DNA of 64,000 nt. Source: a virus. Below are positions 298-58,940 of this stretch, piece by piece. The stretch is taken from the IMG/VR virus record IMGVR_UViG_3300028800_002449; one strand, given 5' to 3'. The translations under genes were made by a program, and so were the position numbers. How positions within the stretch are numbered: position 1 is the stretch's first letter; every line of letters begins with the position of its first letter. The notes beneath the pieces were generated by a model. It made no database searches and was not told the DNA's origin. It saw only the letters and a program-made list of their open reading frames with translations.

Positions 298-983
298 CAG
301 CGCAACCACATATCGAGAGTTGCGAGCTTCTCCTCGTGCGTCCTCTTCGGATCCATGATCTCGACGATGAGGACGATGTCTGGATGCATCTCCACGAGCC
401 TCTTCACCCACGGGCCGATGTCGTAACCTTCGAGCGCATGATCTTGGCCGCCGTATCGATCTATCGTGTGAATGTGGGCTGCGGCGATCGGCAACTGTAC
501 GAAGGCCTCGAACGAGGCCTCGCAGAGGTCGCGCCACTCGGACTCGTCCCGCGACAACGAGACGTTCGACTGGAGGATGTGTCCAGTGTCGAGGCACAGC
601 TCGTGGCCAGCCTCCACGAGCGACTTGAACTGGTAGGCGTGGATGATGCCGGCATCGGTCGGGTGCCACGCCTGGTTGTGGTTCTCGAAGAGCACCTTCT
701 TGCCGTGCCCCACGTAGTGCTTCCACGCGTCTTCCCAGTTTGATAGACCACACTTCTTCGTCACGTGAGCGACGAAGTAGTCGACGTCGTCCTGGTCGAA
801 CGACAGTTCGTCCGGGACGTCCTTGACGTCCTGGAAGACCGGGAGGTGGACGCTCAGTACCTTGGCCTTCTTCTTGAGATCGGCCGCGACCTGGAGGCGT
901 CTACCCCGGTTCTTGCCGGAAAACTCGATGGCGTCGACGACGGGGCCGTCGTACTCCTCGAACGTGGAGAGCCCGCGCAGCAT
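297..983 (-). CDS. Xylose-isomerase-like TIM-barrel protein (sugar-phosphate isomerase/epimerase or AP-endonuclease-2 family)
   Basis: Internal Met (MLRGLSTFEEY) of ORF 297..1391(-). Motifs VLFENH, LDTGH and HIHT are typical of this fold. The R-rich N-terminus of the listed ORF is treated as artefact. TGATG overlap with the PTH2 stop. Confidence 0.55.
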   Translation of the reverse strand: MLRGLSTFEEYDGPVVDAIEFSGKNRGRRLQVAADLKKKAKVLSVHLPVFQDVKDVPDELSFDQDDVDYFVAHVTKKCGLSNWEDAWKHYVGHGKKVLFENHNQAWHPTDAGIIHAYQFKSLVEAGHELCLDTGHILQSNVSLSRDESEWRDLCEASFEAFVQLPIAAAHIHTIDRYGGQDHALEGYDIGPWVKRLVEMHPDIVLIVEIMDPKRTHEEKLATLDMWLR

Positions 984-1366
984 CAAAGCAGCTTCAGCCC
1001 TTCGACGTACGGAGCCGCCCGACTCTTCGGCATGGGCGCCATCGCGTAGACGGTCCGCGACCTCGCTTCGACGGCGGTACGACCTTCGTCGACGACGTAC
1101 CTGCCGAAGGCTGAACGGGGCTTGAAGAACTCCTCGTCGTCGGCCTTGAGGACGAGCTTCGTGTAGCTTTGAAGCTCCCACTCTTCGAGCCAGAGCTTGT
1201 CTCGGGGGCCACCTTGAGCCTCGACGGCGCGGATGATGAGCTGCACGCCGTGGCCGACCTGTGCGGCGATCTTGCCCTTGGGCATTCCGAGGCTCGACCT
1301 CACGATCAGGTACATCACGATCTCGTCGTCGCTCATGTTGTCTTCCATCCCGATGCCGTCTTCCAT
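983..1366 (-). CDS. pth2: Peptidyl-tRNA hydrolase, PTH2 (archaeal/eukaryotic) type
   Basis: 127 aa; KGKIAAQVGHG motif characteristic of PTH2. Confidence 0.75.
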   Translation of the reverse strand: MEDGIGMEDNMSDDEIVMYLIVRSSLGMPKGKIAAQVGHGVQLIIRAVEAQGGPRDKLWLEEWELQSYTKLVLKADDEEFFKPRSAFGRYVVDEGRTAVEARSRTVYAMAPMPKSRAAPYVEGLKLL

Positions 1367-1872
1367 GCCAATGCCCTCGTCGCCTCGTCACAGAAATACT
1401 TGATCTGAAACTTCACGTACTCGATCGTCTTGTACTGCTCTTTCCGAGTGATCTGGTCGCTCCTATCCAACCTCGGATCGAACTTGTAGAGGAGTTCGTC
1501 GACGGGATAGTAGTCGCCGCTGTGGCCACAGGAGAAGCCGAACCACACGACGTCTTCGCGAGACGCGCGCCTGAACTGGTCGTTGCCGGCCCCAGTCCAT
1601 TCGAGCCCACCATGAACTAGAACCGGCACGTGCTCTGCTGACAGGGTGTACCACGGATGCTCTGACGGGACCGCGATGTAGCCGCTGAGCGTTCCGATCG
1701 TCGTGCGCATGATGAGGCAGTCGTACCCGTTCCAGGAGAACGGCACGTAGTCGGGCTCGGTCTGCCAGGGCCCGTCGCCCCACATCGACTTGTCGATGGG
1801 AAAGCCTTCGACCGGTGGCTGGTCGATGACCGAGCCGTCTTCGACGGCTGGCGCGTCTAGAGCAGTCGTCAT
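1333..1872 (-). CDS. Hypothetical protein, about 179 aa
   Basis: Internal Met (MTTALDAP) of ORF 1333..2013(-). Non-biased composition. Start overlaps the stop of the next ORF. Confidence 0.45.
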   Translation of the reverse strand: MTTALDAPAVEDGSVIDQPPVEGFPIDKSMWGDGPWQTEPDYVPFSWNGYDCLIMRTTIGTLSGYIAVPSEHPWYTLSAEHVPVLVHGGLEWTGAGNDQFRRASREDVVWFGFSCGHSGDYYPVDELLYKFDPRLDRSDQITRKEQYKTIEYVKFQIKYFCDEATRALAWKTASGWKTT

Positions 1873-2039
1873 GAGTCGAAGTCGTCCCGAGTCGCGCCAC
1901 CGATGAGGATGTCGACGATCCCCGTGTACAAGACGCCCAGGCCCATCGAAGCGAAGATCGAATGCTTCTCGTTCATCGACATGTGGAAGAAGATGCCGAA
2001 GGAGAAGGCCCAAACGACCGCGCGCAGCTTCGTGATCAT
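1869..2039 (-). CDS. Small membrane protein, about 56 aa
   Basis: MITKLRAVVWAFSFGIFFHMS hydrophobic segment. Internal start of ORF 1869..2156(-). Confidence 0.35.
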   Translation of the reverse strand: MITKLRAVVWAFSFGIFFHMSMNEKHSIFASMGLGVLYTGIVDILIGGATRDDFDS

Positions 2040-2040
2040 C

Positions 2041-2250
2041 TCAGTGCCAGGCGCCACACGCACACGGACCCGAACGGACGTCGCACCGGACGCCTCCGTT
2101 GCTGCCCATGTCGACGTGGGCTGCGTGCGCGTCGAGCAGCTGCAAGTCGAGCGCACCGTCCTCCATGCAGCAGATCTGAAGCGTCTCGAAGACGTGCTTG
2201 TGCGCCTCAGGGCGTTTCGCGATGTCCTCCAAACGTTCTTGATGAGTCAT
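2041..2250 (-). CDS. Hypothetical small protein, about 69 aa
   Basis: Internal Met MTHQERLED of ORF 2041..2358(-). Confidence 0.35.
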   Translation of the reverse strand: MTHQERLEDIAKRPEAHKHVFETLQICCMEDGALDLQLLDAHAAHVDMGSNGGVRCDVRSGPCACGAWH

Positions 2251-2438
2251 GATCTCCGTATCCCTGCGGAGGGGATCGGATGCTCTTCGACCAGCTTGCC
2301 GAGAGCGTCGTAGTAGCAGTCCTGGCACTCGCCACCGTAGATCTCCACGCTGCCACACTCGACACAGACTGGCTTCGAACGCCCCAACCTGTCGAGGAGC
2401 GTCGGGTCCTTGGCTATGTCCTTGAGCGGTATCCCCAT
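2247..2438 (-). CDS. Zinc-ribbon protein, 63 aa
   Basis: CVECGS...CQDC pairs of Cys; tight overlap with neighbours. Confidence 0.45.
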   Translation of the reverse strand: MGIPLKDIAKDPTLLDRLGRSKPVCVECGSVEIYGGECQDCYYDALGKLVEEHPIPSAGIRRS

Positions 2439-2449
2439 GGCTACACCCT

Positions 2450-2629
2450 TCAGTTGGTCTTCGAGGACTCGACCAATGACATCATCTTGACGTGCGACGA
2501 CGTGTCATGCCCTGAGAGCCACAGCACGAACTCGTCCTTCTGATCGGGCGTGAGCGTGCCGTCGTTGGCCATGTAGACCTCCCAAGGAGTCTGGAACTTG
2601 TCGCCGCAGGAGCAGCTGATGACGCGCAT
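2450..2629 (-). CDS. Hypothetical small Cys-containing protein, about 59 aa
   Basis: Internal Met MRVISCSCGDKF of ORF 2450..2896(-). Confidence 0.3.
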   Translation of the reverse strand: MRVISCSCGDKFQTPWEVYMANDGTLTPDQKDEFVLWLSGHDTSSHVKMMSLVESSKTN

Positions 2630-2637
2630 AAGGTTCT

Positions 2638-2961
2638 TCACGCGGGATTGGCCTCGTCGGACACGTCCTGCGTAGGAGACAGTCCGCTCCTTTCGTACGA
2701 GAGGTTCACGTCGAACATCTGCGAAAGCTCCTCCCGGCTGAGGACCTGAGCCTTCTCGCCGACGATCGCGAGCCGCCCCGATCCCTCGGCGTAGCCCCAC
2801 ACGTCGTAGACGGCGTTTCCGGCATGCATGGCAGCTTCGAGCATGGTCGGCGCCACGCCGCTCCTCACGATCCTTCCGTCTTCTAAAACCTCCCACTCGT
2901 ATGCGCTTCCTCCGCCGTGCTCGTCAGCGACGGCGATGCTCCTCACGGCGATTGACGTCAT
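2638..2961 (-). CDS. Hypothetical protein, 107 aa
   Basis: Clean ORF with ordinary composition. Confidence 0.45.
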   Translation of the reverse strand: MTSIAVRSIAVADEHGGGSAYEWEVLEDGRIVRSGVAPTMLEAAMHAGNAVYDVWGYAEGSGRLAIVGEKAQVLSREELSQMFDVNLSYERSGLSPTQDVSDEANPA

Positions 2962-2990
2962 CTGAGATCTCCCTCACTGAAAGCTTGCTG

Positions 2991-3299
2991 CTAGTTCAAA
3001 ACCAGGAAGAGGGATCTTATCTCAGAATCGCTCATAACGTGAGTGAGACCGGCGTGCCAAGACTGGGCGTTGCCCTTGCCATCATCCTCCGGGGTGATCT
3101 GAAGGTCCCACGACAGAGGGTTGAGAGCGTCCCAAACGACGCCTCGCTCGGTCGAGACGTCACCGAGGAAGCGGACGTCGGTGACCTTGCCGCCCATGAA
3201 GTGGTACTCGCCGCACTTGCACTGCACGCCGGCAGCCGACCTCCCGAGGACCTTCGAGAGCTTCTGCTTCTGCTGGGCGACTTGCTCGGCGTAGGTCAC
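2991..3299 (-). CDS. Hypothetical protein, 102 aa
   Basis: Clean ORF. Confidence 0.45.
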   Translation of the reverse strand: MTYAEQVAQQKQKLSKVLGRSAAGVQCKCGEYHFMGGKVTDVRFLGDVSTERGVVWDALNPLSWDLQITPEDDGKGNAQSWHAGLTHVMSDSEIRSLFLVLN

Positions 3300-3574
3300 T
3301 TCAATCCTCTGACAAGCATCGCGAGTTGTTCATCGGCAAGGGATGCGCCGCCGTTGAGGGGATAGACGCGCCACGTATCCATCCGAACGTTGTCGCAACA
3401 CGGCTGACACGTCATCCCTGGAACAAGAGAATACATGTTGTCGGAGAAGAGACGCCAGAGGCAGCCGCAGGTCTTGCACTGATCGACGGCGACGAGGACG
3501 GCGGTCTCCGCGGCAGGGTTGGTCGTCGCGTCGACCTCTTCCGACTCAGCGACGACGATCTCCTCGCCGCTCAT
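3296..3574 (-). CDS. Cys-rich hypothetical protein, about 92 aa
   Basis: Internal Met MSGEEIVV; CKTCGC...CQPCC. Confidence 0.4.
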   Translation of the reverse strand: MSGEEIVVAESEEVDATTNPAAETAVLVAVDQCKTCGCLWRLFSDNMYSLVPGMTCQPCCDNVRMDTWRVYPLNGGASLADEQLAMLVRGLK

Positions 3575-3816
3575 GGGCGGCGGATCTTCTCCGGTTCGAA
3601 GCCCGGGACGCTCGTGGTTCCATCGGGAGGTCCAGACTGCTGGCAGCCCTCCAGGAAGGAGACGGCATGCTGGAGGCATCCGTACCAGTCACCGTAGTTC
3701 TCGTAGGTGAAGAGGATGGCCTTCGCCTCGGCGATCGTCTTGGCCAGGAAGTCGACGACGTTCGGACCGGCGAGGGACGCCTCTTCGACGGCCGGCTTCT
3801 CCAGCTCGTTCGTCAT
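3571..3816 (-). CDS. Hypothetical protein, about 81 aa
   Basis: Internal Met MTNELEKP of ORF 3571..3930(-). Confidence 0.4.
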   Translation of the reverse strand: MTNELEKPAVEEASLAGPNVVDFLAKTIAEAKAILFTYENYGDWYGCLQHAVSFLEGCQQSGPPDGTTSVPGFEPEKIRRP

Positions 3817-4025
3817 CGGCTCCAAGTCCTCCAGAAGGTTTGGACGGCTTCGACTTGATGCGGAAGCATCAGAGGAGGAAGACGGCGCATGATCCGTCCC
3901 AAGGCCTGCTCCGGGTCCGGCTCGAACCACCGCATCGCTCCCAGGGGGACCGGCGGCGCCTTGATGTTCGCGATCTCCTCGACGTCGGCGACGGCGAAGG
4001 TCGTCTCAGAGCTTGCCGGAGCCAT
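3813..4025 (-). CDS. Hypothetical protein, 70 aa
   Basis: ORF packed between neighbours. Confidence 0.35.
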   Translation of the reverse strand: MAPASSETTFAVADVEEIANIKAPPVPLGAMRWFEPDPEQALGRIMRRLPPLMLPHQVEAVQTFWRTWSR

Positions 4026-4278
4026 GGGTCAGCCACTCTTTCATGGGGTACGTGATGTTGGTCTCCACGACGTAGCCGTGTTGTGAGGTCGTCAGGAGCT
4101 TGCCTTTGCCGAAGACTTCCGACAGGTCGTAGCGGCTGATGAAGTCGTCCCACTGCCGATCCGTCTCCATCGGGGGGAAGGGCTGGTCGCCTGGCCAGAT
4201 CTCCATGGGACCCGCGGTGTCTCCGACGTTGACGTCGAGCGAAACCTCTTCCACGCCGGGGCATACGATCTCATTCAT
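4006..4278 (-). CDS. Hypothetical protein, 90 aa
   Basis: Clean ORF. Confidence 0.45.
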   Translation of the reverse strand: MNEIVCPGVEEVSLDVNVGDTAGPMEIWPGDQPFPPMETDRQWDDFISRYDLSEVFGKGKLLTTSQHGYVVETNITYPMKEWLTHGSGKL

Positions 4279-4577
4279 GTGAACGCCTGAACTTCACGTC
4301 GCATCTTCAGGACTTGCTCCAACGTGTTGATGGTGCTGAGCGTGTACATCTCTTTCTGATCGAGGGGCATACCGTCGCTCGGCCATCCGACTAGACCTGG
4401 AGGTCCTGGGTAGTTTCCCTTCTGAGGAGGAAGAGACATCCACGTCTTCTGCCAGAGAGCCGTCGCAGATTCAAAGGTCTCCTTCGGCGTCATCCGACAG
4501 ACTTCGTTCCAGAGGTTGATCATGACGTCATCGCCGAGTGAGATCTCTTCGACGCGAGGTTGTTCAACAGCGTTCAT
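4275..4577 (-). CDS. Hypothetical protein, about 100 aa
   Basis: Internal Met MNAVEQPRVEE. The listed ORF has a TTG start and an R-rich extension. Confidence 0.4.
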   Translation of the reverse strand: MNAVEQPRVEEISLGDDVMINLWNEVCRMTPKETFESATALWQKTWMSLPPQKGNYPGPPGLVGWPSDGMPLDQKEMYTLSTINTLEQVLKMRREVQAFT

Positions 4578-4774
4578 GTGATCGCCTTCTCTTTGTCCCA
4601 GCCCTTGATGCACCCGTAGATCGTCGCCACCGACGCGACGGCGGTGAGAGCGATGGAAGCGAGCAAGATCCCGATCAACCATCTCGGTGACGATCGCCAG
4701 GTGACAAGGCAAACGACTCCGTTGCCTACGGTGGCCACCACGTAGCCGTAGGCACCTGCTCGTCCCTTGCTCAC
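4574..4774 (-). CDS. Small membrane protein, 66 aa
   Basis: Two hydrophobic segments (LIGILLASIALTAVASVA). Confidence 0.45.
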   Translation of the reverse strand: MSKGRAGAYGYVVATVGNGVVCLVTWRSSPRWLIGILLASIALTAVASVATIYGCIKGWDKEKAIT

Positions 4775-5241
4775 GGTGACTTCTTCCTGCCGCCGCCGAC
4801 CTCGACGTGCGTGCCGAAGATCTGCTCGATCATCTCCATGATGCCGCCGGCAGACTGGGTCGCAGTCGCGGCCCGCTTCGGCAGGTTGTCGCGCACGTCG
4901 ACGGTCATCTCGATGAACTGCTTCAGGAGGTCATCGACGTTGCCCGAGTTCACGCCCTGCTCGGACACCCTGACGACGAGGTCATCGAAGAGCGGACCGA
5001 AGACGGAGCCCGTCTCCGTGAAGGCCGGTCGAGCCTTCTGCTCTCGGTCGTATTCCCGCCTGCGGCCGTCGTCGGCCAGGATGGCGTAGGCGGCGCAGAC
5101 CTCCTTGAAACGTTCGGTCTTGGCCTTGTTGCCGCCCGTCGCGTCAGGGTGAAGCTCGCGAGCAAGACGCCTGTAGGCGCTCTTGATCACAGCGGAATCG
5201 GCGTCGTGGGGGACGCCGAGGATCTTGTAGAGGTCCTTCAT
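4771..5241 (-). CDS. J-domain (DnaJ-like) co-chaperone
   Basis: DLYKILGV...YRRLARELHPD contains the HPD tripeptide of J domains. Confidence 0.8.
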   Translation of the reverse strand: MKDLYKILGVPHDADSAVIKSAYRRLARELHPDATGGNKAKTERFKEVCAAYAILADDGRRREYDREQKARPAFTETGSVFGPLFDDLVVRVSEQGVNSGNVDDLLKQFIEMTVDVRDNLPKRAATATQSAGGIMEMIEQIFGTHVEVGGGRKKSP

Positions 5242-5253
5242 CCTGCGACTATC

Positions 5254-5448
5254 TTACGCCCGGTCGGGCACTTCGAGAAAGAGCACTATCGAGATGCAGT
5301 GGTACTCGGCATCGGAGCTTTGACGCAGCTCCTTCTCGATCGAGATCGCGCCCGCAGCCCACGCCGCACGCACGTACCTCGTCACCTTGTCGCCCAGCTC
5401 GTCCCTGTCACGCGACTTCGTCGCCGAAAACGTCTTCACCACCAACAT
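5254..5448 (-). CDS. Hypothetical protein, 64 aa
   Basis: ORF. Confidence 0.35.
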   Translation of the reverse strand: MLVVKTFSATKSRDRDELGDKVTRYVRAAWAAGAISIEKELRQSSDAEYHCISIVLFLEVPDRA

Positions 5449-5481
5449 GTCTGCTCTCCCGGTACCAGGGGGTTCAGCGCT

Positions 5482-5868
5482 TCAATCGTCACTGAAGAAG
5501 CTGCTGTCGTGCCGTTCACCTACCTCGTTCAAGTGAGCGACGAGCTTGCCCCCCGCAAGCTCGTGCTCACGCATCCATGCAGAGATCCCGACGTTGTAGA
5601 ACTTTCGCGGCTTCACGCCTTCTCGTTTGTCTTCACGTTCGGGCGTGAGCTTGTCGTATTCGATATGATTTATGGTGTGACTCGGGCCCACGCCTTTTTC
5701 CCTTCGGAAGAATGCTGCGTGGTCTTCGTGGTTCCAGTGCAATCGTTGGCTGATGATCAGGACGACCTGGCCGAGAAGCATGGTCTCCTTCGCGTAGTCG
5801 CGGAAGTACATCTTCACGCCTTCTGGAACAGACGGATCTCGGAGAAGGTCGGGGCTGGCGATCAACAT
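5482..5868 (-). CDS. Hypothetical protein, 128 aa
   Basis: Clean ORF with His-rich segment HWNHEDH. Confidence 0.45.
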   Translation of the reverse strand: MLIASPDLLRDPSVPEGVKMYFRDYAKETMLLGQVVLIISQRLHWNHEDHAAFFRREKGVGPSHTINHIEYDKLTPEREDKREGVKPRKFYNVGISAWMREHELAGGKLVAHLNEVGERHDSSFFSDD

Positions 5869-6374
5869 CAGTTGGCTCGTTTGTCCTTGTCGTCCTTGTT
5901 CTTATCGTCGCTCGACTGCGAGCCGACGTCATCGGACGATCCGCCGAAGAACTTCGCGTGGCACTTGCCGCAGCCGGCCTTCTTGAACTTCGCGAGGTCG
6001 GTCCCCAACCGGTTCTTCTGCTTGCACCTGCTGCACGTGAAGTAGAAGGTCCGGTGGCCGTAGGCCTTGAACGACTCGACCTGGTTGACGTTCATCCTAT
6101 CCATGACGTCGAAGACGTCGTGGAAGACCTCCTCTTCTTCGAGATCTTCGTCAGGCGTACCTTCCTTGCGAGGTCGTGGTTTGAACGGCTTCCAAGCGCC
6201 CATACCATGCTTGACGTCCCACGAGGCTGTGCGGCCTTCCGACGGGGCAACTCCGAAGAGGCTCTTGCCGAGCCTCTCCCAGTATCCCTTGGGGATGATG
6301 CCGAGCTGCGTGTAGACGAACAGCCACAGGCCTGCGACGACGACGACTCCCAGGAAGGTCAGGATGAATGACAT
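5868..6374 (-). CDS. Membrane-anchored zinc-ribbon protein, 168 aa
   Basis: N-terminal TM helix; C-terminal CSRCKQ...CGKCH; acidic/Lys-rich tail. Confidence 0.5.
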   Translation of the reverse strand: MSFILTFLGVVVVAGLWLFVYTQLGIIPKGYWERLGKSLFGVAPSEGRTASWDVKHGMGAWKPFKPRPRKEGTPDEDLEEEEVFHDVFDVMDRMNVNQVESFKAYGHRTFYFTCSRCKQKNRLGTDLAKFKKAGCGKCHAKFFGGSSDDVGSQSSDDKNKDDKDKRAN

Positions 6375-6386
6375 GGTCTTCCCTTT

Positions 6387-6884
6387 TCAGGTGGCGGGCG
6401 GGTTCTCGGCCATCTGACCCGTGATGAACTTGTGGAGCTTCTCCACCCTGTGCATCTTGATCATGTCGTCGGGGGAGATCTGACCGAGCAGCGGGTTCGG
6501 GACCTTGAACCAGGCCCTCGTCCTGTGGAGATCTCCCTTGAAGAACTGTTCGACGAGCTGCAAGCACTCTTTCATGAGAGTGCCTTCCACGCGAAGTTCG
6601 AGGCGTTGTTTTTCGAGCGCACCGACGAGCTTCTGGCTGCTGTCCAGTTCTCTCTGTGCGCTGTTGACCCTGCGCTGAGCTTCATCTATGGCCAACGCCA
6701 TACGAGCCTCAGCCGACACGATCGCCTCTTCGGGGGTCGAGGAGGCGTAGCTCGTCCGGCCGCCGGCCGTGAACAAGGTGCCGTCCTCGAACATGTGGTG
6801 CAGGCCGTCGGGCGTCGTCAGCCCGATGTGGAAGCCCCAGTTGTCGCCGCCGGACCAGCCGAGCTTGTAGAGAATCTTCTTCAT
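6387..6884 (-). CDS. Hypothetical protein, 165 aa
   Basis: Clean ORF with a coiled-coil middle. Confidence 0.45.
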   Translation of the reverse strand: MKKILYKLGWSGGDNWGFHIGLTTPDGLHHMFEDGTLFTAGGRTSYASSTPEEAIVSAEARMALAIDEAQRRVNSAQRELDSSQKLVGALEKQRLELRVEGTLMKECLQLVEQFFKGDLHRTRAWFKVPNPLLGQISPDDMIKMHRVEKLHKFITGQMAENPPAT

Positions 6885-7132
6885 GGCGTCGTCGTGACGG
6901 CCGGTTCGGTCGGCTTCTGGCCTGCGGCTCGAACGACCGGAGAGGTCCCGTCGGCGACGGCGGCCAGCTCGATGAGCTTGGCCGCGTATTGACGAGCGCG
7001 ACGGGGCGAGAAGGTCTGCGTCAGGTACATCTGAGTCTTCAGGTCCGGCATGAACGCCTCCATGCCGCCGACGGAAATAGTGACGTTGCGACCTGATACG
7101 CCGAGTCGTAAGGCTTTATTCTTGGTCTTCAT
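6881..7132 (-). CDS. Hypothetical protein, about 83 aa
   Basis: Internal Met MKTKNKALRLG of ORF 6881..7264(-). Confidence 0.35.
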   Translation of the reverse strand: MKTKNKALRLGVSGRNVTISVGGMEAFMPDLKTQMYLTQTFSPRRARQYAAKLIELAAVADGTSPVVRAAGQKPTEPAVTTTP

Positions 7133-7134
7133 CT

Positions 7135-7617
7135 TCACGAGTCCTTTTCGGCGACAGGCTTCTTTTCGATCCTCGCGACGTAGCCCTGGCACGTCGCACA
7201 ATGGTCGCAGGCCCTCGGGCCAGGCATGTAGAAGTGTTGGCCGTAATCGCCGCCGCAGGTGCATCTCCGGGACTCCGGCTCCAACTTCGCACAGTCGACC
7301 AGCGACTGCACGATTTTGGCGGCGATGTCGACGTCGATGTCCTTGATCCAGTGCAAGGAGATCTCGAAACGACCGTCCCCGATGCAGCCGAAGGTAATCG
7401 AGATTTCCGTGTGCGGCTTGAAGGCGATCGTGTGAGGGCCGTAGCCGTGCTTGGTCGAGGGGACGTCGACGCCCATCTGACCGAGCTTGACGGCGATATC
7501 GTTGGCGTCTCTGCCCAGCTCAGGCCGACAAGTTCTTCCGTGGTTCCTCTCGGCGATCTGCCAGCCGCACTTGGGGCAGACCTTCAGACCGTCGACGTAG
7601 ACGATTTCTTTGGTCAT
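7135..7617 (-). CDS. Zinc-ribbon-containing hypothetical protein, 160 aa
   Basis: CPKCG...C and CTCGG...CDHCATC clusters. Confidence 0.5.
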   Translation of the reverse strand: MTKEIVYVDGLKVCPKCGWQIAERNHGRTCRPELGRDANDIAVKLGQMGVDVPSTKHGYGPHTIAFKPHTEISITFGCIGDGRFEISLHWIKDIDVDIAAKIVQSLVDCAKLEPESRRCTCGGDYGQHFYMPGPRACDHCATCQGYVARIEKKPVAEKDS

Positions 7618-7618
7618 G

Positions 7619-8236
7619 TCACAACCCCAGGAACAAGGGCATACCCATCGGGATGCGCATCTGGTTCGGCCGACTCGCGGCGTAGATCGTCTGGAGAGCG
7701 AAGGCGTAGGCGGTCGGACGTAGAGACGGATCGGAGACGGAGGCGGCGATCTTCTCGGCCTTCGAGACGGTCGTAGCCAGCTTCTCCTCGACGTCCTTGG
7801 CCTCCGAGAACTCTCGGAGCTTGCCTTCCGCGGCGCTCTTGGCGGCTCTCAGGCCGTCGACCTCGTCATAGAGCTGCTTCTTCTCAGCCCTCAACATGTT
7901 GACGGTGTCGTTCAGCTGACGATTCTGCGTCATTACCAGCTGGTAGATCACAGGATCCAAGGCACCCTCGTCGCCGTGTTGATCCAGCTTCATGCCCAGC
8001 GAGAGCGTCATCTGGGCCAGGCAGTTCTTCACCTCCCTCAAGCTCTTGCGACCGAAGCTCCTCAGCTTGAGGAGATCCGTCTCGTTCTTCTGGACGAGGT
8101 CTCGAAGAGTCGTGATCCGCGCGTCGATCAACCGCCCCTTCACGAAGTTCGTGAGCGACATGTTGGAGATTGGCATCGAAAGCCTCGCTTCGAGCGTCGG
8201 CAATGAGTCGTGGTCGAGATCAGCCATGAGATTCAC
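7619..8236 (-). CDS. RNA polymerase alpha-subunit C-terminal-domain (alphaCTD)-like protein fused to a coiled coil
   Basis: Residues around DLVQKNETDLLKLRSFGRKSLREVKNCLAQMTLSLGMKL align closely to E. coli RpoA CTD ([39 protein letters not shown]). Confidence 0.7.
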   Translation of the reverse strand: MNLMADLDHDSLPTLEARLSMPISNMSLTNFVKGRLIDARITTLRDLVQKNETDLLKLRSFGRKSLREVKNCLAQMTLSLGMKLDQHGDEGALDPVIYQLVMTQNRQLNDTVNMLRAEKKQLYDEVDGLRAAKSAAEGKLREFSEAKDVEEKLATTVSKAEKIAASVSDPSLRPTAYAFALQTIYAASRPNQMRIPMGMPLFLGL

Positions 8237-8420
8237 CTTCCAACTTCGTCGCCTTCGCTTCCATCATTTCCGCCGTACGAATCAGCTCCGCCGCGACCGT
8301 GCCGCTCGTCTTCGCGGCACGATCGCGCCTCGTCTTCGCGTCACGACGGTACATGTTGATGAGGACGCGAGGGTCGACGGCGGGCTGAGGCTTTCTCTTG
8401 CGACCGGCCACGAGGATCAA
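8220..8420 (-). CDS. Hypothetical basic protein, 66 aa
   Basis: ORF overlapping both neighbours by a few nt. Confidence 0.3.
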   Translation of the reverse strand: MILVAGRKRKPQPAVDPRVLINMYRRDAKTRRDRAAKTSGTVAAELIRTAEMMEAKATKLEGESHG

Positions 8421-9679
8421 CCCTTGACGCAGAGGACCTGCTTCAAGATGGCGACCGTGTCGACGAGATCGGCCTGGTTCTTCATGACGACGTCGATGTC
8501 CTTATAGGCTGACGGGATCTCGTCGATGATCCCCTCGTCCTTGCGACACTCGACGCCCTTCGTCTGAGCCTCCACGTCGGCGATCGTGTACTTGCGCTTC
8601 GCGGCCCCGCGGCTCATGCGCCGGCCCGCGCCGTGGCTCGCCGACATCAACGAGTCGGCGTTTCCGCGTCCGCGCACGATGTACGAGCGCGTGCCCATGG
8701 AGCCGGGGATGATGCCGTAGTCGTTCAGGCCCGCCCGGATCGCACCCTTGCGGGTCACGACGAGGTCCTCTCGGAAGTGGACCTCCTCCGAGACGTAGTT
8801 GTGGTGACAGAGGATCGGGTCGCCGAACTCGACCTCTGGGAAGAACTTCTTCATCGCCTCGGCGTACAGCACGAACATCACCTTCCGGTTGAGGAAGGCG
8901 TAGCGCTGCGCCCAGAAGAGGTCACGACGATAGGCGTCCATCTCGGGCGTGCCCTTGAGGAAGACCGCGAGATCGCGATCTGGCAGAAGCTCGTTGTGGG
9001 TCAGCTTCATCGCCTTGCCCATGTGGATCTCCGCCAAGGTCTTGCCGATGTTCCGAGACCCCGAGTGCAGGACCATGTACACGAACGGGTCTCGCTTCCC
9101 CGTCTCGTTGCAGTCGGAGCAGCCCATGGCGGGCACGCCCACGCCGACCATGCAGTCGCACGTGCCGTCGTCGAGGCAAAGCTCGATGAAGTGGTTGCCG
9201 CCGCCGAGCGTGCCGGACTGCTCGCGTGCGCGCTTCTCCAGATCGGAGACTCCGCCGTCGAGCATGGCGAATTCGGACCAGAGCACGTCGGCCTCGCGCT
9301 TGACCGATTCGGGCATGCGTCCACGGCCGACCGCGTGCTCGTGGCCTGAGAAGCCGACGGGGATGAGGCGCTCGATCTCAGCGCGAAGGGCGGACAGGTC
9401 GTCGGGCAGCTGGCTCGCCCGCAGGGTCGTGCGGATCGCGCCCATCCCGCAGCCGATGTCGACGCCGACGGCGGCCGGCGACACGGCATCCTTCATCGCG
9501 ATCACGGACCCGACAGTCGCGCCCTTGCCGAAGTGGACGTCCGGCATGACCGAGACGTGGACCACCCAGGGCAGCGACGCGATGTTGCGGAGCTGGTCGA
9601 GCGCCTGGCTCTCGACCTCCGCGATCTGGGTCCAGACCTTGATGTCGACCCGGCCACCCTTCAGCGTCTCGTAGCTCAT
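8417..9679 (-). CDS. rtcB: RtcB RNA-splicing/repair ligase
   Basis: 420 aa; motifs GNHFIEL, HSGSRNIG and ASHGAGR typical of RtcB. SD GAGGAGACAACC upstream. Confidence 0.9.
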   Translation of the reverse strand: MSYETLKGGRVDIKVWTQIAEVESQALDQLRNIASLPWVVHVSVMPDVHFGKGATVGSVIAMKDAVSPAAVGVDIGCGMGAIRTTLRASQLPDDLSALRAEIERLIPVGFSGHEHAVGRGRMPESVKREADVLWSEFAMLDGGVSDLEKRAREQSGTLGGGNHFIELCLDDGTCDCMVGVGVPAMGCSDCNETGKRDPFVYMVLHSGSRNIGKTLAEIHMGKAMKLTHNELLPDRDLAVFLKGTPEMDAYRRDLFWAQRYAFLNRKVMFVLYAEAMKKFFPEVEFGDPILCHHNYVSEEVHFREDLVVTRKGAIRAGLNDYGIIPGSMGTRSYIVRGRGNADSLMSASHGAGRRMSRGAAKRKYTIADVEAQTKGVECRKDEGIIDEIPSAYKDIDVVMKNQADLVDTVAILKQVLCVKG

Positions 9680-9699: not shown

Positions 9700-9750
9700 C
9701 CCTACCGGCACCACTATTTTAGTCAAGATAATTTTACTCAGGATCAACCC
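9700..9750 (-). promoter_or_regulatory. Promoter motif type 1 upstream of rtcB (coding strand AAATTATCTTGACT-N16-TAGGGT)
   Basis: AT-rich island in a GC-rich sequence; plus strand reads TATTTTAGTCAAGATAATTTTA; a -35-like TTGACT and a -10-like TAGGGT. Confidence 0.55.
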
Positions 9751-14057: not shown

Positions 14058-14972
14058 CTACTTGCCCGACTTCCCGCTGCTGCCCTTGCCCGTGATCTTC
14101 TTCTTGGCGATGCCGCTCACGAACTCGGAGAGGCGGCCGTTCGAGGCCACGAGGTCGCCGTGCGTGGCCTTGCCGAAAACCCACTCGATGGTGATGCGGG
14201 TCTGGCTGCTGAGGGCCGCCATCGCCTCCTCGTCGCGGTAGAGACGGCGGAGGCGAGCCAGGGCCGACTCCTTCTTCTCGACTGGGTCGCCGCTGCCGTT
14301 GCCGCCCTTGCTGCCGCCCTTCTTGGGAGCGGACTCGATGAGCTTGATGAGGGCCTCGTCCTGATCCTCGCGCGTCAGGTCGGCGAGGTTCTCGACGGCC
14401 GCGTGGAAGGCGACCTGGCCCGTCCGGATGGCGGATTGGACGACGGAGGACAGCGTGTCGAGCTTCGCCCACGTCTTGATCGTGTTGACCGTCGTGTGGA
14501 AGTCGACCGCCAGCTCGGCGTCCGACTTGCCGAAGCGGCGACGTGCGTCGTTGGCCTTCTCGGCCCGCGTGACGATGTCGTCCCCGAGCGAGACGTAGTT
14601 CGTGATGCTGTTGGTCGACGAGGCCGACGAGTCGTTCTCGTTGCGGATGATGACCGGGATCTTGCGAGGCGTCCCGCCCTCGGCCACGATGCGCTTGTTG
14701 GCCTCGATCGCGTTCTTCGTGCGCTGACGGCCCGCGGAGACCTCGAAGAGGGGGCCGTTCTTGCGGACGATGACGGGCTCGATGACTCCGTGGGCGATGA
14801 TCGAGGCGACCATGCCCTCGTCGATCGGAAGGTGGACGCGCTTGTCGTAGAGCGGGTGCTTGACGTCGAACACGAGCGTCAGCGACGCCGGGTCGACGTT
14901 GTAGATGTTCGAACGGGACGCGTCGACGATGGCGACTTTCTTGCGCTTCACAGTCTCGGTGGTCGGGCTCAT
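14058..14972 (-). CDS. ParB-like nuclease-domain protein
   Basis: PVIVRKNGPLFEVSAGRQRTKNAIEA resembles the ParB/sulfiredoxin GxRR box. SD GAGGAGACAACCC ahead of Met6; Lys/Gly-rich tail. Confidence 0.6.
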   Translation of the reverse strand: MSPTTETVKRKKVAIVDASRSNIYNVDPASLTLVFDVKHPLYDKRVHLPIDEGMVASIIAHGVIEPVIVRKNGPLFEVSAGRQRTKNAIEANKRIVAEGGTPRKIPVIIRNENDSSASSTNSITNYVSLGDDIVTRAEKANDARRRFGKSDAELAVDFHTTVNTIKTWAKLDTLSSVVQSAIRTGQVAFHAAVENLADLTREDQDEALIKLIESAPKKGGSKGGNGSGDPVEKKESALARLRRLYRDEEAMAALSSQTRITIEWVFGKATHGDLVASNGRLSEFVSGIAKKKITGKGSSGKSGK

Positions 14973-15029
14973 GGGTTGTCTCCTCATTTGACGGTCAGCG
15001 TTAGCGACCTGACGAAAACCATCCTAAAC

Positions 15030-25687: not shown

Positions 25688-26086
25688 TCAGACGTTCAGC
25701 TCGGGCTGAAGCTCCCAGATGGAGACGGGACGCTTGTGGCTGCCGTTGGCCTTCCAGCCCACGCGGAACCACTGGCGATGCCGGAAGACGACGCCCATCC
25801 AGCGCGGGTCGGCCTCCGACAGCTGACTCTTGAGGGCGTCGTCGTGCTCAGCCGCTTCCCAGAGCTTCTTCCAGACGTCGGGCGACGAGACCTGCTTGTC
25901 GGCCTTGGCGATCTCGCGAGCGATGCCTTGGGCGCGGGCGACCAACTGCTTGTAGGCACCCGCGAGCTTCTCTATGGCGAGATCGAGCTGCTCGCCCTCC
26001 TCGCCGCTGGACCCTCCTCGCTTCTTCTTCACGGCATCGGCTCGCCGATGTGCTCGTTCTTGTGGAACTTCCTGTATTGTTTCCAC
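25688..26086 (-). CDS. Hypothetical protein, 132 aa
   Basis: ORF. Confidence 0.4.
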   Translation of the reverse strand: METIQEVPQERAHRRADAVKKKRGGSSGEEGEQLDLAIEKLAGAYKQLVARAQGIAREIAKADKQVSSPDVWKKLWEAAEHDDALKSQLSEADPRWMGVVFRHRQWFRVGWKANGSHKRPVSIWELQPELNV

Positions 26087-27030
26087 CCCCTAAAATTGCC
26101 GCTCTGGATCTGCGACAGGGCAGCTTCGACGGCCATCTGAGAGGGCGTGATCTTGCCCGAGTGCTCTTGATCGACGCGGTCCTGCATGCGACCGATGTTG
26201 AGCGCCCTCGACGTGTACTCGGCGAGCCCGGGGTACATGTCCTTGAACCATTGAGGATAGGCCATCGCCTGCGCGACGTGCTCTCCGGGAGAGGCGTGGA
26301 GAGGCTCCTGCACGATGAGCTTGTCGTGGAGCTTGATGTCCTCGACGAGGTCGCGCTTGCCGTCGTGGGTCAGGTAGCTCACGCGTGCGACGCGACCGAC
26401 GGAGACCTTCACGAGGTAGTTGGTGACGTTGACCATGTTGGGAAGCGGAGAATCCACGGTCTTCGCGATCTCCCAGTCCTCGTCGAAGATGAGAGGCAGG
26501 TGCCACTCTCCAGGCTTGAGCTTCTTCGGCGTGGATGCGTCCTGAGCCTCCTTCATCATCGTCACGATCTTGCGGCAATGGGGCTCGGCAGCCGAGTGTA
26601 TGCGCAAGCCGTAGAGGTTCGAGACGGTGGTGGACGAGTAGATGACGGTGATCCACATGCCAGGCTCGACGACGCGGTTAACGATCTGCTTGTGCAGGCC
26701 CAGCTCGACGCCCCTTCGGGCGTGAGCGATCGAAGCCGCGATGCCCTCGCGCCACCATGCCTCGGCGCCGGCCTTGTCCTCGACCTCGCCGAAGGCCTGC
26801 ATGCCCGGCTCGTTCGCGCCCCACCAGATCGGGACGACGGGGTCGGCCTCGATGTTCGAAAGCATCTTCGCGACGGGGATGGCCCTCGACGAAGCGCTCG
26901 AACGCGACAGAGCCTTGTGCGTGAGCATCTCGCTGTGGATCTTGCGTGGATACGTCGAGCACCACGTGGTGAGACGATCTCCGGTCTCGTCGTTGATCGA
27001 GTCGGCCAGGATGCGGGCTTCGAATGCCAT
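26029..27030 (-). CDS. ThyX-like (flavin-dependent thymidylate synthase family) protein, divergent
   Basis: THKALSRSSASSR matches the spacing of the ThyX RHRx7-8S motif, and LRIHSAAEPHCRKIVTMMKEA resembles the second ThyX block. At 333 aa it is longer than typical ThyX. Confidence 0.45.
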   Translation of the reverse strand: MAFEARILADSINDETGDRLTTWCSTYPRKIHSEMLTHKALSRSSASSRAIPVAKMLSNIEADPVVPIWWGANEPGMQAFGEVEDKAGAEAWWREGIAASIAHARRGVELGLHKQIVNRVVEPGMWITVIYSSTTVSNLYGLRIHSAAEPHCRKIVTMMKEAQDASTPKKLKPGEWHLPLIFDEDWEIAKTVDSPLPNMVNVTNYLVKVSVGRVARVSYLTHDGKRDLVEDIKLHDKLIVQEPLHASPGEHVAQAMAYPQWFKDMYPGLAEYTSRALNIGRMQDRVDQEHSGKITPSQMAVEAALSQIQSGNFRGWKQYRKFHKNEHIGEPMP

Positions 27031-27527: not shown

Positions 27528-27767
27528 TCAGTCGGTGACCGTGAAACTGTATCGCCACGTGTGGTACCCGCTACAGTCTTCGCACAGAGAGACTGGGATC
27601 GACCCTATCTGGTTCAACCAAGTCGCGAACATCGACGTCATCTTGATCGCGTCGAGCGCATCCTGCTTCGTCTCGTAGCGCTCCGGCCTGTCACAAGGCT
27701 TCGCCAATCGCGATCGAAGCCGTGCCGTCGCCAGCGGCGCAAGAAGCAGGATCGGGAGCCAGATCAT
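27528..27767 (-). CDS. Small secreted protein, about 79 aa
   Basis: Internal Met MIWLPILLLAPLATA signal-peptide-like. Confidence 0.35.
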   Translation of the reverse strand: MIWLPILLLAPLATARLRSRLAKPCDRPERYETKQDALDAIKMTSMFATWLNQIGSIPVSLCEDCSGYHTWRYSFTVTD

Positions 27768-29137: not shown

Positions 29138-30072
29138 GGAGCCTTGCCTTCCAAGAACGAGTCGATCTTCTTCGACCACTCATCATGCGATTCGACCTGC
29201 TTCAAGAACTCGCAGATCCGCGTCGAGAGCCAGAGCGTGTAGAGGTTGACCTTGTTGCTCTTGACGTCCTCGATGAAGCTCTTGACGAACAGCTGCAAGG
29301 CTTGCGGCCGGTCGTCGACGATCCTCCTGCGAGGGAGCTTGCAGTGGACGACTCCTCCGACCTCTTCATAGACGTACTCACCACCCTCCTCCGTCTTGAC
29401 GGTCAACTTCTTGGACTCCGCCTCTTCGGAACCGTTGCCGACGGACATCTCGAAAGAGGCCTCGCCGAAGGTGCCTTCGATGAAGCGATAGTCGCCACCG
29501 TCACGCTCGGTCTTCTGCACCGACGAGATGCTGTAGGCCTGATCGCCCAGCAGATCGAACAGGAACGCGACGGCGTGAGGACCGTAGTCCCAAAGCCCCG
29601 GGTAGGACCGATAGGGACCTCGGCCGTAGAATTCGATGGAGATGCGCTTGATCTTCGCCTTCTGCGACTCCTGCTTGATCTTGTGGTATTGGGGCGACCA
29701 GAGCCGGACGTAGTCGACGACCGTCGGCACGAGTGGAGGAAGGTCGCCAATCGACGACAGCTTGAGCGGCTTCGTCAGCATCGTGGGGATCGCCAGGGTC
29801 TTGCACGTCTCGTAGAAGGACAACGTTTCTTCAGGCGGCGCCGTGCAGACGATCGCGTCGACCATCTTCGCGTTCGCCTCGAACAGGAGGTCCTGCAACG
29901 AGACCAGGTAGCCCATCCCCGGCGCACGCTCCGTGCTCATCGGGCTGCGCACATGGAAGAGGACCTCGGCCTCGAACGCCCTGAAGACGCTCGCGACGAG
30001 CTGACCCCACCTGCCGGGCCCTACCCAGCCCAACCTGAACGGCCTCGCCTGCTTCGTCACGTTCATGGCCAC
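29134..30072 (-). CDS. Gfo/Idh/MocA-family NAD(P)-dependent oxidoreductase
   Basis: LGWVGPGRWGQ Rossmann motif at the N-terminus; about 310 aa. Confidence 0.6.
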   Translation of the reverse strand: MAMNVTKQARPFRLGWVGPGRWGQLVASVFRAFEAEVLFHVRSPMSTERAPGMGYLVSLQDLLFEANAKMVDAIVCTAPPEETLSFYETCKTLAIPTMLTKPLKLSSIGDLPPLVPTVVDYVRLWSPQYHKIKQESQKAKIKRISIEFYGRGPYRSYPGLWDYGPHAVAFLFDLLGDQAYSISSVQKTERDGGDYRFIEGTFGEASFEMSVGNGSEEAESKKLTVKTEEGGEYVYEEVGGVVHCKLPRRRIVDDRPQALQLFVKSFIEDVKSNKVNLYTLWLSTRICEFLKQVESHDEWSKKIDSFLEGKAP

Positions 30073-31325: not shown

Positions 31326-31327
31326 TC

Positions 31328-57891: not shown

Positions 57892-58431
57892 TCAACCAAC
57901 CTTCGTCCCCCATGCCCAGACCGTCACGGGAAAATCTGGCTCGTTGACGAGAGAGTGATCGGCCGGCCGATAGGTCTCCCACAGGGCGAAGTTCGCTATC
58001 GCGCAGGCCCTGTTCCCCCAGCTGTCTGAATGAACGTCCTTGAAGGCCGCCCTCTTCAACATCAAGGCGAGACCAGAGCTGGTCCATCTCCAATGGTCCT
58101 GAGGAGAGGGGTGGTTCTTGACCAGGAACGGCGTAGAGACGAAGACGCGTCCTCCAGCCGGCAACGCCTTGACGATGTTGACGAGGGCTTCATGAGGGCT
58201 ATCGACGTGCTCCAGGACCTGATCGATGACGATCAAGTTCGCGTCCTTCGCACGAAACTGCCAACCATCCTTGCAGAGGTCGACACCGGACACCGAGCGG
58301 AAGCTCTTCCAGGGAAGGAGGTCCGAAAATGCGCCTCCGGAGATCTCGACGACGTCGAGCTTGCCCGCATCACCCTCGAAGTGCTTCTTCGCCGCCTCGT
58401 ACATGGCGATGCGAGTCCAGTGGCTGCGCAC
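57892..58431 (-). CDS. Class I SAM-dependent methyltransferase, paralog B
   Basis: GTG start (VRSHWTRIAMY) chosen by alignment with paralog A. The listed longer ORF would run into the tRNA-Gln gene. Confidence 0.6.
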   Translation of the reverse strand: MRSHWTRIAMYEAAKKHFEGDAGKLDVVEISGGAFSDLLPWKSFRSVSGVDLCKDGWQFRAKDANLIVIDQVLEHVDSPHEALVNIVKALPAGGRVFVSTPFLVKNHPSPQDHWRWTSSGLALMLKRAAFKDVHSDSWGNRACAIANFALWETYRPADHSLVNEPDFPVTVWAWGTKVG

Positions 58432-58521
58432 GCCGTAGGGCACGATCAGAACTCCTGGTGAGTCAGGCTGGTCAGAGCAGGAAGGACGGTGACGAGTGCG
58501 ATCGAGTTGGACGGCAGAGTT

Positions 58522-58598
58522 TGGTACGCAAAGTTGGATTTGAACCAACGATCTTCCGCTTCAGAGGCGAACGTCCTACCAGACTGGACGATTTGCAT
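58522..58598 (-). tRNA. tRNA-Gln (anticodon CUG), 77 nt with encoded CCA
   Basis: Manual fold: acceptor ATGCAAA/TTTGCGT, D-arm GTCC-AGTCTGGTA-GGAC, anticodon arm TTCGC-CTCTGAA-GCGGA, T-arm GTTGG-TTCAAAT-CCAAC, discriminator A, CCA. Confidence 0.8.
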
Positions 58599-58940
58599 GT
58601 GTGCCGTTCCGGGGTTGATCGCTCTCGACATCGTCCTTTCTACGCTGAGAAAATTGAAGCTCTCGACCGAGTGTCAGACCTGTGTGCGCCGTTAGGCCAG
58701 TTCTTCAGACTGGTGCGTTTACCATTCCGCCACGTCTCCCTCTCGGGAAACGACAGGACTTGAACCTGCAAATGCTTGTGAGGTCGTGACTGTTGGTCGT
58801 GAGCAGCGAGGTTCCCTGGAGTCGAACCAGGTGGTGTTACTCTGATGGGGCTTGCCGTCTCCCCCGAAACCCCGAATCGAACGAAAGATAGACTGCTTCT
58901 ATTTTCAATCTCCGTCAAGAGAAAATCGACATCTCTGCTT
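58599..58940 (-). ncRNA. Non-coding region with tRNA-like fragments (degenerate tRNA-like elements or other structured RNA)
   Basis: Good T-arm motifs on the minus strand (GCAGGTTCAAGTCCTGT, CCTGGTTCGACTCCAGG). One good D-arm plus anticodon arm (GGCGGAATGGTAAACGC / CCAGT-CTGAAGA-ACTGG, anticodon GAA). I could not assemble a complete cloverleaf by hand. Confidence 0.3.

Follow-up and report, generated by a model that had tools for sequence, protein, structure and literature searches.

Does a stretch of viral DNA that encodes an RtcB RNA ligase, a peptidyl-tRNA hydrolase of the PTH2 type, an RlaP-like nucleotidyltransferase and a tRNA-Gln(CUG) equip its owner to withstand host nucleases that attack tRNA? 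The question is raised by the virus record IMGVR_UViG_3300028800_002449, of which we analyzed 64,000 nucleotides (the whole stretch, hereafter the window; positions 123,825-187,824 of the 260,244-bp metagenome contig ERZ27245399 k141_2938905) and for which such a countermeasure had been proposed from the DNA letters (the original prediction). The gene identifications held, and two further features emerged that the original prediction had missed: the repeat region next to the RlaP gene is a conserved structured RNA, and the tRNA beside it switches anticodon among relatives. The interpretation that we favor, with a probability of roughly 0.55, is a jumbo-phage kit for RNA damage and ribosome rescue, in which tRNA mimics would act as cofactor or decoy. 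The combination of RtcB, RlaP, PTH2 and tRNA has already been described in jumbo phages (Iyer et al., 2021, Viruses 13:63; PMC7824862); the RNA locus, for which no description was found in the accessible literature and none in Rfam, is the new content of this analysis.

The RNA Locus Next to RlaP

The RNA locus spans positions 58472-58924 of the minus strand, behind a copy of a promoter-like motif, and is made of three elements, which we call module A, module B and the tRNA (Table 1). Relatives for comparison were viral loci (coded L002, L003, L162, L163/L164, L165 and others), and the five lineages of the RNA locus mentioned below are the window, L002, L003, L162 and L163/L164. The window and L002 share about 94% identity over the locus, as compared to 85-91% for the flanking coding sequences, and the indels of 1 nt that occur within it exclude a coding reading.

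Covariation is strong in module B. The module opens with a bulged basal helix holding a conserved AACA/ACUC internal loop, continues with a T-arm and a closed acceptor-like hairpin of 7-8 bp, and then proceeds through U-G, a D-arm with GG and an anticodon-like hairpin to the closure of the basal helix, i.e., the arms of a tRNA in circularly permuted order. A covariance model (R1) built from the window and L002 finds the module in L003, L162 and L163/L164 with E-values from 1e-24 to 1e-47. Over the five sequences 97.4% of the pair cells are standard and 12 of the 39 pairs change on both sides, a level of covariation that none of 500 shuffles reached and whose signal collapses when the partner is shifted by 1-3 columns; the same helices are independently predicted by RNAalifold. 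Module A retains the standard arm order; its acceptor-like stem has 7 bp and is followed by a D-like hairpin and a perfect T-arm (CCUGG-UUCGACU-CCAGG). Its homologue in L003, L162 and L163 is about 133 nt long and includes an anticodon-like and an extra hairpin, the form in the window being shortened by about 65 nt, and compensatory changes among lineages, assessed by eye and unscored, are present in the acceptor, D-like and T stems. The tRNA-like repeat region that had been suspected at 58522..58940 therefore resolves into two structured tRNA-like elements, with covariation in module B and compensatory stems in module A.

The stems of module B are conserved, and the loop of its anticodon-like hairpin reads CUGAAGA, CUGAAUA, CUACGGA, AUGGAA or UCGAAAA; since it varies freely, module B is not a decoding tRNA. 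A permuted or split functional tRNA-Phe was considered and rejected, as the loop is unconserved, has 6-7 nt and shows neither a constant U at position 33 nor a constant purine at position 37, and the acceptor loop is devoid of discriminator and CCA. In our reading, module B would serve a tRNA-centered module as a cofactor or decoy with the shape of a tRNA.

Neither module reaches the gathering threshold of the Rfam tRNA family (RF00005); the best tRNA score outside the tRNA itself, 22.6 bits against a threshold of 29, belongs to the fragment formed by D-arm and anticodon arm. The Rfam search of the RNA locus returned no match to YrlA, GOLLD, ROOL, tmRNA or any other family, and extra T-loop motifs were located at 58756-66 and 58818-28. 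Two further structural proposals were dismissed: a canonical Ro60-binding helix, in which, compared with vertebrate Y RNAs, the GGUC/GACC strands are swapped and L002 has an A in place of the bulged C, and a long-range pairing of 58868-79 with 58605-16, which is not conserved in L003. As for the distribution of module B, a specific 20-base pattern gave no match in IMG/VR, a less strict pattern of 14 bases produced 75 chance matches there, none confirmed by the covariance model, and no match was obtained in species-representative genomes.

A scan for the permuted topology detected units in the clade of the window, in L075 and, as a positive control, beside Ro60 in L004, where it recovers the presumptive YrlA; the only other matches, two in number, fall within an array of tandem tRNA genes in L010, and no unit appeared in 637 kb of unrelated control viral loci or in shuffled sequence. 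In L075, an unrelated phage locus (5792-6070, plus strand), two YrlA-like permuted tRNA-like units, where no tRNA is called and to which the Rfam YrlA model has no match, sit between an RlaP-DUF7873 gene, whose RlaP is 42% identical to that of the window, and a T4-type Pnkp gene. Outside the clade of the window an association of RlaP with permuted RNA was thus found at 1 of 80 RlaP loci, which is suggestive only.

The third element, the predicted tRNA-Gln(CUG), was recovered by both ARAGORN and Rfam (Table 1). It is flanked by a long imperfect helix of leader and trailer. Of the 54 pairs that RNAalifold predicts for helix and cloverleaf together, 15 are maintained by two-sided substitutions, and several of these belong to the flanking helix. 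Relatives share the acceptor, D and T arms and show compensatory changes in the anticodon stem; the anticodon itself is CUG in the window, UUC in L002, CUC in L003, CUU in L162 and AAU in L163. Three of these five differ at position 36 alone, and the amino acids decoded shift from Gln (CUG) to Glu (UUC, CUC) and Lys (CUU). The L003 copy has no encoded CCA and a weakened acceptor stem.

RtcB, PTH2 and the Array Between Them

The RtcB protein passes PF01139 at full length (model positions 1-426 in Pfam; E 1.6e-116, 390 bits, cut-off 27), as the original prediction had anticipated, and its motifs MPDVH, DIGCG, GGGNHF, HSGSR, HHN and SHGAGR align with solved RtcB structures. The metal-binding and histidine-GMP motifs are intact, and the enzyme is predicted to link 3'-P or 2',3'>P ends to 5'-OH ends in a reaction that depends on GTP and Mn. 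Homologues occur in 657 GenBank phage records, the best being 62.5% identical (Stenotrophomonas phage BUCTxx99). Between GGGNHF and HSGSR, at residues ~170-195, there is a CxC-x11-CxxC insertion, also kept in the L165 orthologue, which may form a zinc knuckle.

PTH2, on whose family assignment the original prediction depended, matches PF01981 over model positions 2-115 of 115 (E 1.4e-20, 74 bits, cut-off 23), and the NCBIfam Pth2 equivalog models match it below their own cut-offs. Aligned to 1xty, the protein keeps GKGKIAAQV, including the catalytic Lys, and the D-x-G-x-T motif, which with that Lys we take to be the catalytic residues of archaeal Pth2. Genes for PTH2 are rare in GenBank phages (10 records) as compared to RtcB (657) and RlaP-like genes (243). 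The archaeo-eukaryotic type of this hydrolase and the occurrence of the gene combination in large phages, both asserted by the original prediction, agree with the published account (PMC7824862). In a separate 424-kb contig a PTH2 gene lies 2 kb from a TROVE gene.

A distance of 7 kb separates RtcB from PTH2 within a single packed array of small co-directional open reading frames (ORFs), and the order RtcB, DnaJ, PTH2 is conserved in L165, with 70% identity for RtcB and 77% for PTH2. The apparent 190-nt gap behind RtcB is occupied by a basic ORF of 66 aa, which is probably coding, to judge from its overlap with the RtcB stop and from the packing. The alpha-CTD-like, J-domain and phrog_2164 proteins of the array may serve host takeover.

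Ahead of RtcB lies a palindrome of the general form TTTATCTTGnnnAAGATA, which contains a TTGAC -35-like element, with a TAGGAT/TAGGGT-like hexamer 16-18 nt further on; at the RtcB site the -35-like TTGACT (9726-9721) is followed after 16 nt by the -10-like TAGGGT (9704-9699). The motif occurs at eight minus-strand sites in the window (13 matches when both strands of the palindrome are counted, against 0.09 matches expected), all eight of which precede a gene, including those of RtcB, the MVP-like protein and the RNA locus, and the copy at the RNA locus has a partly conserved AAAATAG...CAGTCT stretch in L162. From its sequence the palindrome is predicted to act as a phage promoter. No further copy is found from position 9715 to the start of the window (position 1), and the packed ORFs, together with the gene order of L165, make a single long transcription unit from RtcB to PTH2 plausible. 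Of the original claim that the two genes share one promoter block, the motif before RtcB and the unbroken packing down to PTH2 were borne out; the block itself is plausible but unproven. The generic scan for sigma-70 promoters and terminators returned nothing exceeding chance. RlaP and the tRNA, which the original prediction had counted within the span 983-9679, fall outside it, 49 kb from RtcB. At that distance the genes form a genome-level set and not one operon, and RlaP is a unit separate from the RtcB-PTH2 array.

RlaP and Its Neighborhood

The nucleotidyltransferase passes PF10127 (E 9.9e-19, 68 bits, cut-off 23), in line with its initial assignment to the RlaP-like family, with a partial match that pairs protein residues 19-140 with model positions 19-142 of 249 and leaves the C-terminal half unmatched. 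The pol-beta GS and DxD residues (G27, S28, D39, D41) are invariant across 33 homologues of this subtype of ~350 aa. The AF2 model (pLDDT 91.8) consists of an N-terminal alpha/beta nucleotidyltransferase domain followed by a helical C-terminal domain, and its neighbors in the PDB are weak pol-beta nucleotidyltransferases, e.g., kanamycin nucleotidyltransferase (KNTase), LinB and HalB (E 0.007 or higher). These weak matches reflect the shared pol-beta fold, and membership of an antibiotic nucleotidyltransferase family, which would have spoken against the original prediction, was not supported. The sequence search returned 3580 RlaP homologues; in IMG/VR the profile query gave 395 loci with relatives, and the single-sequence query no close one.

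The RNA locus comes immediately after RlaP in the window and in L002, and the two are adjacent in four of the five lineages. The RlaP gene of the window has no RNA ligase gene beside it, and the search of the window for a 5'-P ligase, kinase or phosphatase was negative. RtcB falls within 4 kb of RlaP in 1 of 80 RlaP-bearing viral loci; an enrichment of tRNA or RtcB genes beside RlaP, which we had considered, was not seen (tRNAs at ~14 of 86 loci, RtcB at 1 of 80). In L003 (10929-11576, minus strand) and L162 (3387-4025, minus strand) an opposite-strand Y_phosphatase2 gene, not present in the window, stands between RlaP and the RNA locus, and this cysteine phosphatase is a candidate RNA end-healing 3'-phosphatase.

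On the other side of RlaP are genes for a ThiF/E1-like protein and a JAMM protease with an HxHx7SxxD motif (60396-60971 and 63263-63835, minus strand). They belong to a group whose third member, located outside the window (L006 3887-5782), is a protein of 631 aa carrying a vWA domain at its C-terminus; L002, L003 and L164 have the group conserved ahead of their RNA locus, and no ubiquitin-like partner was recognized in it. Downstream, a small class-I methyltransferase follows the tRNA in most lineages (Table 1). It and its paralogue were examined as Hen1-like end-protecting enzymes and rejected, no similarity to Hen1 being detected.

Table 1. Coordinates of the RNA elements, genes and promoter-like sites discussed in the text (window positions unless a locus is named).
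Feature	Position	Strand	Remarks
Module A, mini tRNA-like element, 67 nt	58807..58873	-	Standard arm order, without anticodon arm
Module B, circularly permuted tRNA mimic, 146 nt	58659..58804	-	Covarying structure
tRNA-Gln(CUG)	58522-58598	-	ARAGORN; Rfam RF00005 60.9 bits (threshold 29); cloverleaf; CCA encoded
tRNA with conserved imperfect leader/trailer helix, ~37 bp	58472..58648	-	Arms 58617-58648 and 58472-58503; inner 8-bp helix
Orthologous tRNAs	L002 11388-11464; L003 11946-12018; L162 4366-4441; L163 3025-3099		
Promoter-like motif copy TTTCTCTTGACGGAGATT	58907..58924	-	Upstream of RNA locus; L002 identical
RlaP-family pol-beta nucleotidyltransferase, 349 aa	58941..59990	-	PF10127
Small class-I methyltransferase	57892..58443	-	Follows tRNA in 4 of 5 lineages; paralogue 56499-57020
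Promoter-like palindrome TTATCTTGactAAAATA	9715..9732	-	~45 nt upstream of RtcB ATG
RtcB RNA 3'-phosphate/5'-OH ligase, 420 aa	8417..9679	-	PF01139; first gene behind promoter-like site
Lys/Arg-rich ORF, 66 aa	8220..8420	-	TTG start overlaps RtcB stop (TTGA); no family match
~24 small co-directional ORFs, RtcB to PTH2	1367..8236	-	Gaps of at most 34 nt; many starts overlap preceding stop
RNA polymerase alpha-CTD-like protein	7619-8236	-	In RtcB-PTH2 array
J-domain (DnaJ) protein	4771-5241	-	In RtcB-PTH2 array
phrog_2164 protein, 179 aa	1333-1872	-	Overlaps PTH2 start; weak MazG-like match
PTH2-type peptidyl-tRNA hydrolase, 127 aa	983..1366	-	PF01981
MVP-like protein, 935 aa	16413-19220	-	Vault_3 repeat and MVP_shoulder domains; promoter-like site 19300-19317

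Genome Setting

The source of the window is likely a jumbo phage. Homologues of window proteins are held by uncultured phage records of 462-735 kb and by IMG/VR loci; no capsid, terminase or tail gene was found within the window, so that this identity is likely but unproven, and in a DNA-level search of GenBank phages none proved similar, short RtcB stretches alone matching. The G+C content is ~61%, and the genes are dense and almost all on the minus strand, the majority being small and without family match. Codon usage strongly favors CAG over CAA (26.7 vs. 3.7 per 1000), and GAG and AAG are preferred likewise. The MVP-like protein has homologues in just three GenBank phage records, all labeled 'uncultured phage' and of 462-735 kb, at ~37% identity.

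Other genes, all on the minus strand, include those for a ParB-like protein (14058-14987), an ABC-transporter permease-like protein (21123-22163), a thymidylate synthase with a PHROG match (26029-27030) and a 600-aa protein (22429-24231) whose C-terminal OmpA domain suggests a Gram-negative host. A large glycan-synthesis cluster (27764-44306) encodes several GT2, GT4 and GT1 glycosyltransferases, some of them fused to methyltransferase or TPR domains, along with C-methyltransferases and a GDP-mannose-4,6-dehydratase-like enzyme. Two giant Gly-rich ORFs with collagen-like repeats (45969-50609 and 52062-56411; ~1,450-1,650 aa), in segments with a G+C fraction of ~0.73, are the main source of the k-mer repeats of the window; loci homologous to them give faint Collagen matches, and they may be fiber proteins.

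Relation to Known Systems

In the account of Iyer et al., the resealing of cleaved tRNAs falls to RtcB or ATP-grasp ligases and the replacement of lost nucleotides to RlaP, the archaeo-eukaryotic PTH2 frees peptidyl-tRNA from jammed ribosomes, and phage tRNAs accompany the set (PMC7824862). The window resembles this jumbo-phage set in its RtcB, RlaP, archaeo-eukaryotic PTH2 and phage tRNA and in a genome of >200 kb, and differs from it in two respects: the ~84 kb covered by our domain searches for repair partners (the window and 10 kb on each side) yielded no ATP-grasp ligase, Pnkp or CCA-adding enzyme, and the set is accompanied by the undescribed locus of tRNA mimics. A precedent is the PrfH (RFH)-RtcB2 operon of ribosome rescue and repair (PMC6514570), which joins peptidyl-tRNA hydrolase activity and an RtcB ligase in one transcription unit, an arrangement that is plausible here; the hydrolase of the window is, however, PTH2 and not a release-factor homologue, and lies 7 kb downstream of the ligase instead of adjacent to it. 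RlaP extends the 3'-OH ends of RNA by 1-2 nucleoside monophosphates and prefers cleaved tRNA; its product is no RtcB substrate (PMC12776372). The enzyme of the Pseudomonas rtcB-rlaP-rtcA operon (Carruthers, Fatma & Huang, bioRxiv 2025) shares with ours the GS/DxD signature of PF10127 and the combination of a nucleotidyltransferase with a helical domain, whereas ours is of the ~350-aa subtype. The window gene also differs in not being beside RtcB and in having neither RtcA nor RtcR for company.

Phage T4 repairs PrrC-cleaved tRNA-Lys with Pnkp and Rnl1 as a counter-defense. The logic proposed here, phage repair of anticodon-loop breaks, is the same, but RtcB seals directly without end healing, and neither Pnkp nor Rnl is present in the window.

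On the RNA side, the closest architecture is that of YrlA, a Y RNA with T-arm, closed acceptor hairpin and D-arm in this order (10.1101/312249, PMC4201824). Like YrlA of the Salmonella rsr-yrlBA-rtcBA operon (RF02553), module B is a permuted tRNA mimic, closed by a long helix, in a genome containing RtcB, and its arm order within that helix is supported by covariation. The further hallmarks of YrlA, GNCGAA(N)G near the 5' end and a same-strand Ro60/TROVE gene within ~4 kb (Chen et al., 2014), are lacking: the GNCGAA motif is absent from the 5' part of module B in all five lineages, and no TROVE match occurs from window position 1 to 73 kb (14 kb upstream and 58 kb downstream of the RNA). The Rfam YrlA model gave no match in a 301-nt search of the RNA locus at E up to 10, as against a weak match of 17.6 bits beside Ro60 in L004, and module B differs further in keeping an anticodon-like hairpin and in a closing helix that leaves from the variable-loop position. 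Phage tRNAs, in turn, have been shown to escape or neutralize tRNA-cleaving defenses (van den Berg, 2023; Azam, 2024; PMC10264068, PMC11555353). The tRNA of the window is similar to these in that the anticodon loop diverges on a conserved tRNA body, and dissimilar in that anticodon and decoded amino acid both change and in the ~37-bp helix on which it sits.

Proposed Mechanism and Alternatives

The steps of the interpretation that we favor are all drawn from the biochemistry of the families concerned. A host tRNA-targeting nuclease active during infection would cut tRNA and leave 2',3'-cyclic-phosphate and 5'-OH ends, which RtcB would reseal directly; PTH2 would hydrolyze peptidyl-tRNA that has come off, or remains trapped on, ribosomes that damaged tRNA has stalled, allowing the tRNA to be recycled; and the phage tRNA, whose CUG anticodon reads the dominant Gln codon CAG, would top up the depleted or targeted species. 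Behind the promoter-like motif after RlaP, two mimics that could not be charged would be made along with this tRNA. Taken together, family functions suggest that the genes may counter a host anticodon nuclease. For the RNA locus by itself we rank a role as cofactor or decoy, in tRNA repair or in defense evasion, ahead of one in a scaffolded ribonucleoprotein, and the latter ahead of housekeeping.

Several observations weigh against this interpretation, which is the published model applied to the window. It is weakened by gene distance, with RlaP 49 kb from RtcB and beside it in 1 of 80 viral loci, and by incompatible ends, since the 3'-OH product of RlaP is no substrate for RtcB, which needs a 3'-phosphate (PMC12776372). 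The domain searches of the window and its 10-kb flanks returned no Rnl-type ligase, Pnkp, RtcA, archease or CCA-adding enzyme and no RNA-repair domain beyond those described above, and no nuclease target, inhibitor or trigger context is linked to the genes. The lineages in which RlaP adjoins the RNA locus are close relatives and therefore not independent observations; in L164, a more distant lineage, the RNA locus occurs with no RlaP beside it, and the ThiF/JAMM/vWA gene group is a steadier neighbor of the locus than RlaP. The phage label, finally, stands on the 260-kb span, the style of the genes and the homologues in viral collections.

Housekeeping of translation, in place of counter-defense, would be an alternative account of the set, the tRNA supplying the top codon, PTH2 clearing the drop-off caused by massive phage translation and RtcB and RlaP processing or maintaining the phage's own RNAs, e.g., by maturation of the tRNA and the tRNA-like transcripts. 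The preferred codons CAG, GAG and AAG are indeed exactly those that the CUG, CUC and CUU anticodons of the window and its relatives read, the long conserved helix that carries the tRNA resembles a processing stem, and no defense or anti-defense gene is linked. A single tRNA cannot, however, rebalance codon supply, and relatives that share codon usage nevertheless carry different single anticodons on the same scaffold; moreover, the cyclic-phosphate substrates of RtcB come mainly from nuclease attack, and published analysis ties the gene set to conflict systems (PMC7824862). We hold this explanation unlikely. More unlikely still is a scaffolded ribonucleoprotein, in which the mimics would be RNA subunits of a Ro60/Y-RNA-like or vault-like particle that presents damaged RNAs to RtcB or RlaP, the protein partner being either the MVP-like protein or the 631-aa vWA protein. 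Eukaryotic vaults bind small RNAs, which makes a link between the MVP-like protein and the tRNA mimics conceivable, and the MVP-like gene carries the same promoter-like motif, yet it lies 40 kb from the RNA locus. Three relatives (L002, L003, L164) have the vWA protein conserved ahead of their RNA locus, but the protein shows no similarity to Ro60, and its examination as a divergent Ro60 ended in rejection, with no support from PDB, Pfam TROVE or BLASTP comparisons. Module B does have the YrlA arm order and the closed acceptor hairpin, and TROVE genes lie near members of the set elsewhere (4 kb from RlaP in L004, 2 kb from PTH2 in the 424-kb contig); against this stand the lack of a TROVE domain over the 14 kb upstream and 58 kb downstream of the RNA, the unmatched YrlA model and the absent 5' GNCGAA.

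An equally low probability attaches to the idea that the mimics act purely as decoys, soaking up host tRNA nucleases or toxins, with the variable loop and the switching anticodon tracking local nuclease specificity. The conserved stems and variable anticodon-like loop of module B would fit, as would the shift of the tRNA among Gln, Glu and Lys, mostly by one base at position 36 on a constant scaffold, and phage tRNAs known to escape or neutralize such nucleases offer a precedent (PMC10264068, PMC11555353). The loop of module B and the anticodon of the tRNA are nonetheless uncorrelated across lineages, module A is without an anticodon-like arm in the window, and no nuclease is known. That the modules are functionless pseudogenes, the degenerate remains of an old tRNA array, was already disfavored and appears highly improbable. 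ARAGORN calls one tRNA only, module A has lost ~65 nt relative to L003 and L162, and adjacent tRNA genes can imitate an order of T-arm, acceptor and D-arm; but the 3' strand of the acceptor-like hairpin of module B covaries with the next 5' strand, as does the basal helix, which independent remnants would not show, and the region is more conserved than the adjoining coding sequence.

Implications

The protein set of the window adds little to what is known, being one more uncultured example of a jumbo-phage kit already described. The RNA locus, by contrast, offers a mimic supported by covariation and absent from Rfam, with YrlA-like topology but without Ro60 and physically tied to RlaP, and the single tRNA scaffold that bears Gln, Glu or Lys anticodons in near-identical phages constitutes a natural series. 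We tentatively propose, as a possibility short of even odds, that the locus represents a new, Ro60-independent class of phage tRNA mimics acting with repair enzymes or against tRNA-targeting immunity. If this is true, the mimics could present broken tRNA ends to RlaP or RtcB, or be decoys for nucleases, and the example of L075, where such units lie between RlaP and Pnkp, hints that tRNA mimics may be a recurrent and overlooked part of phage RNA-repair modules.

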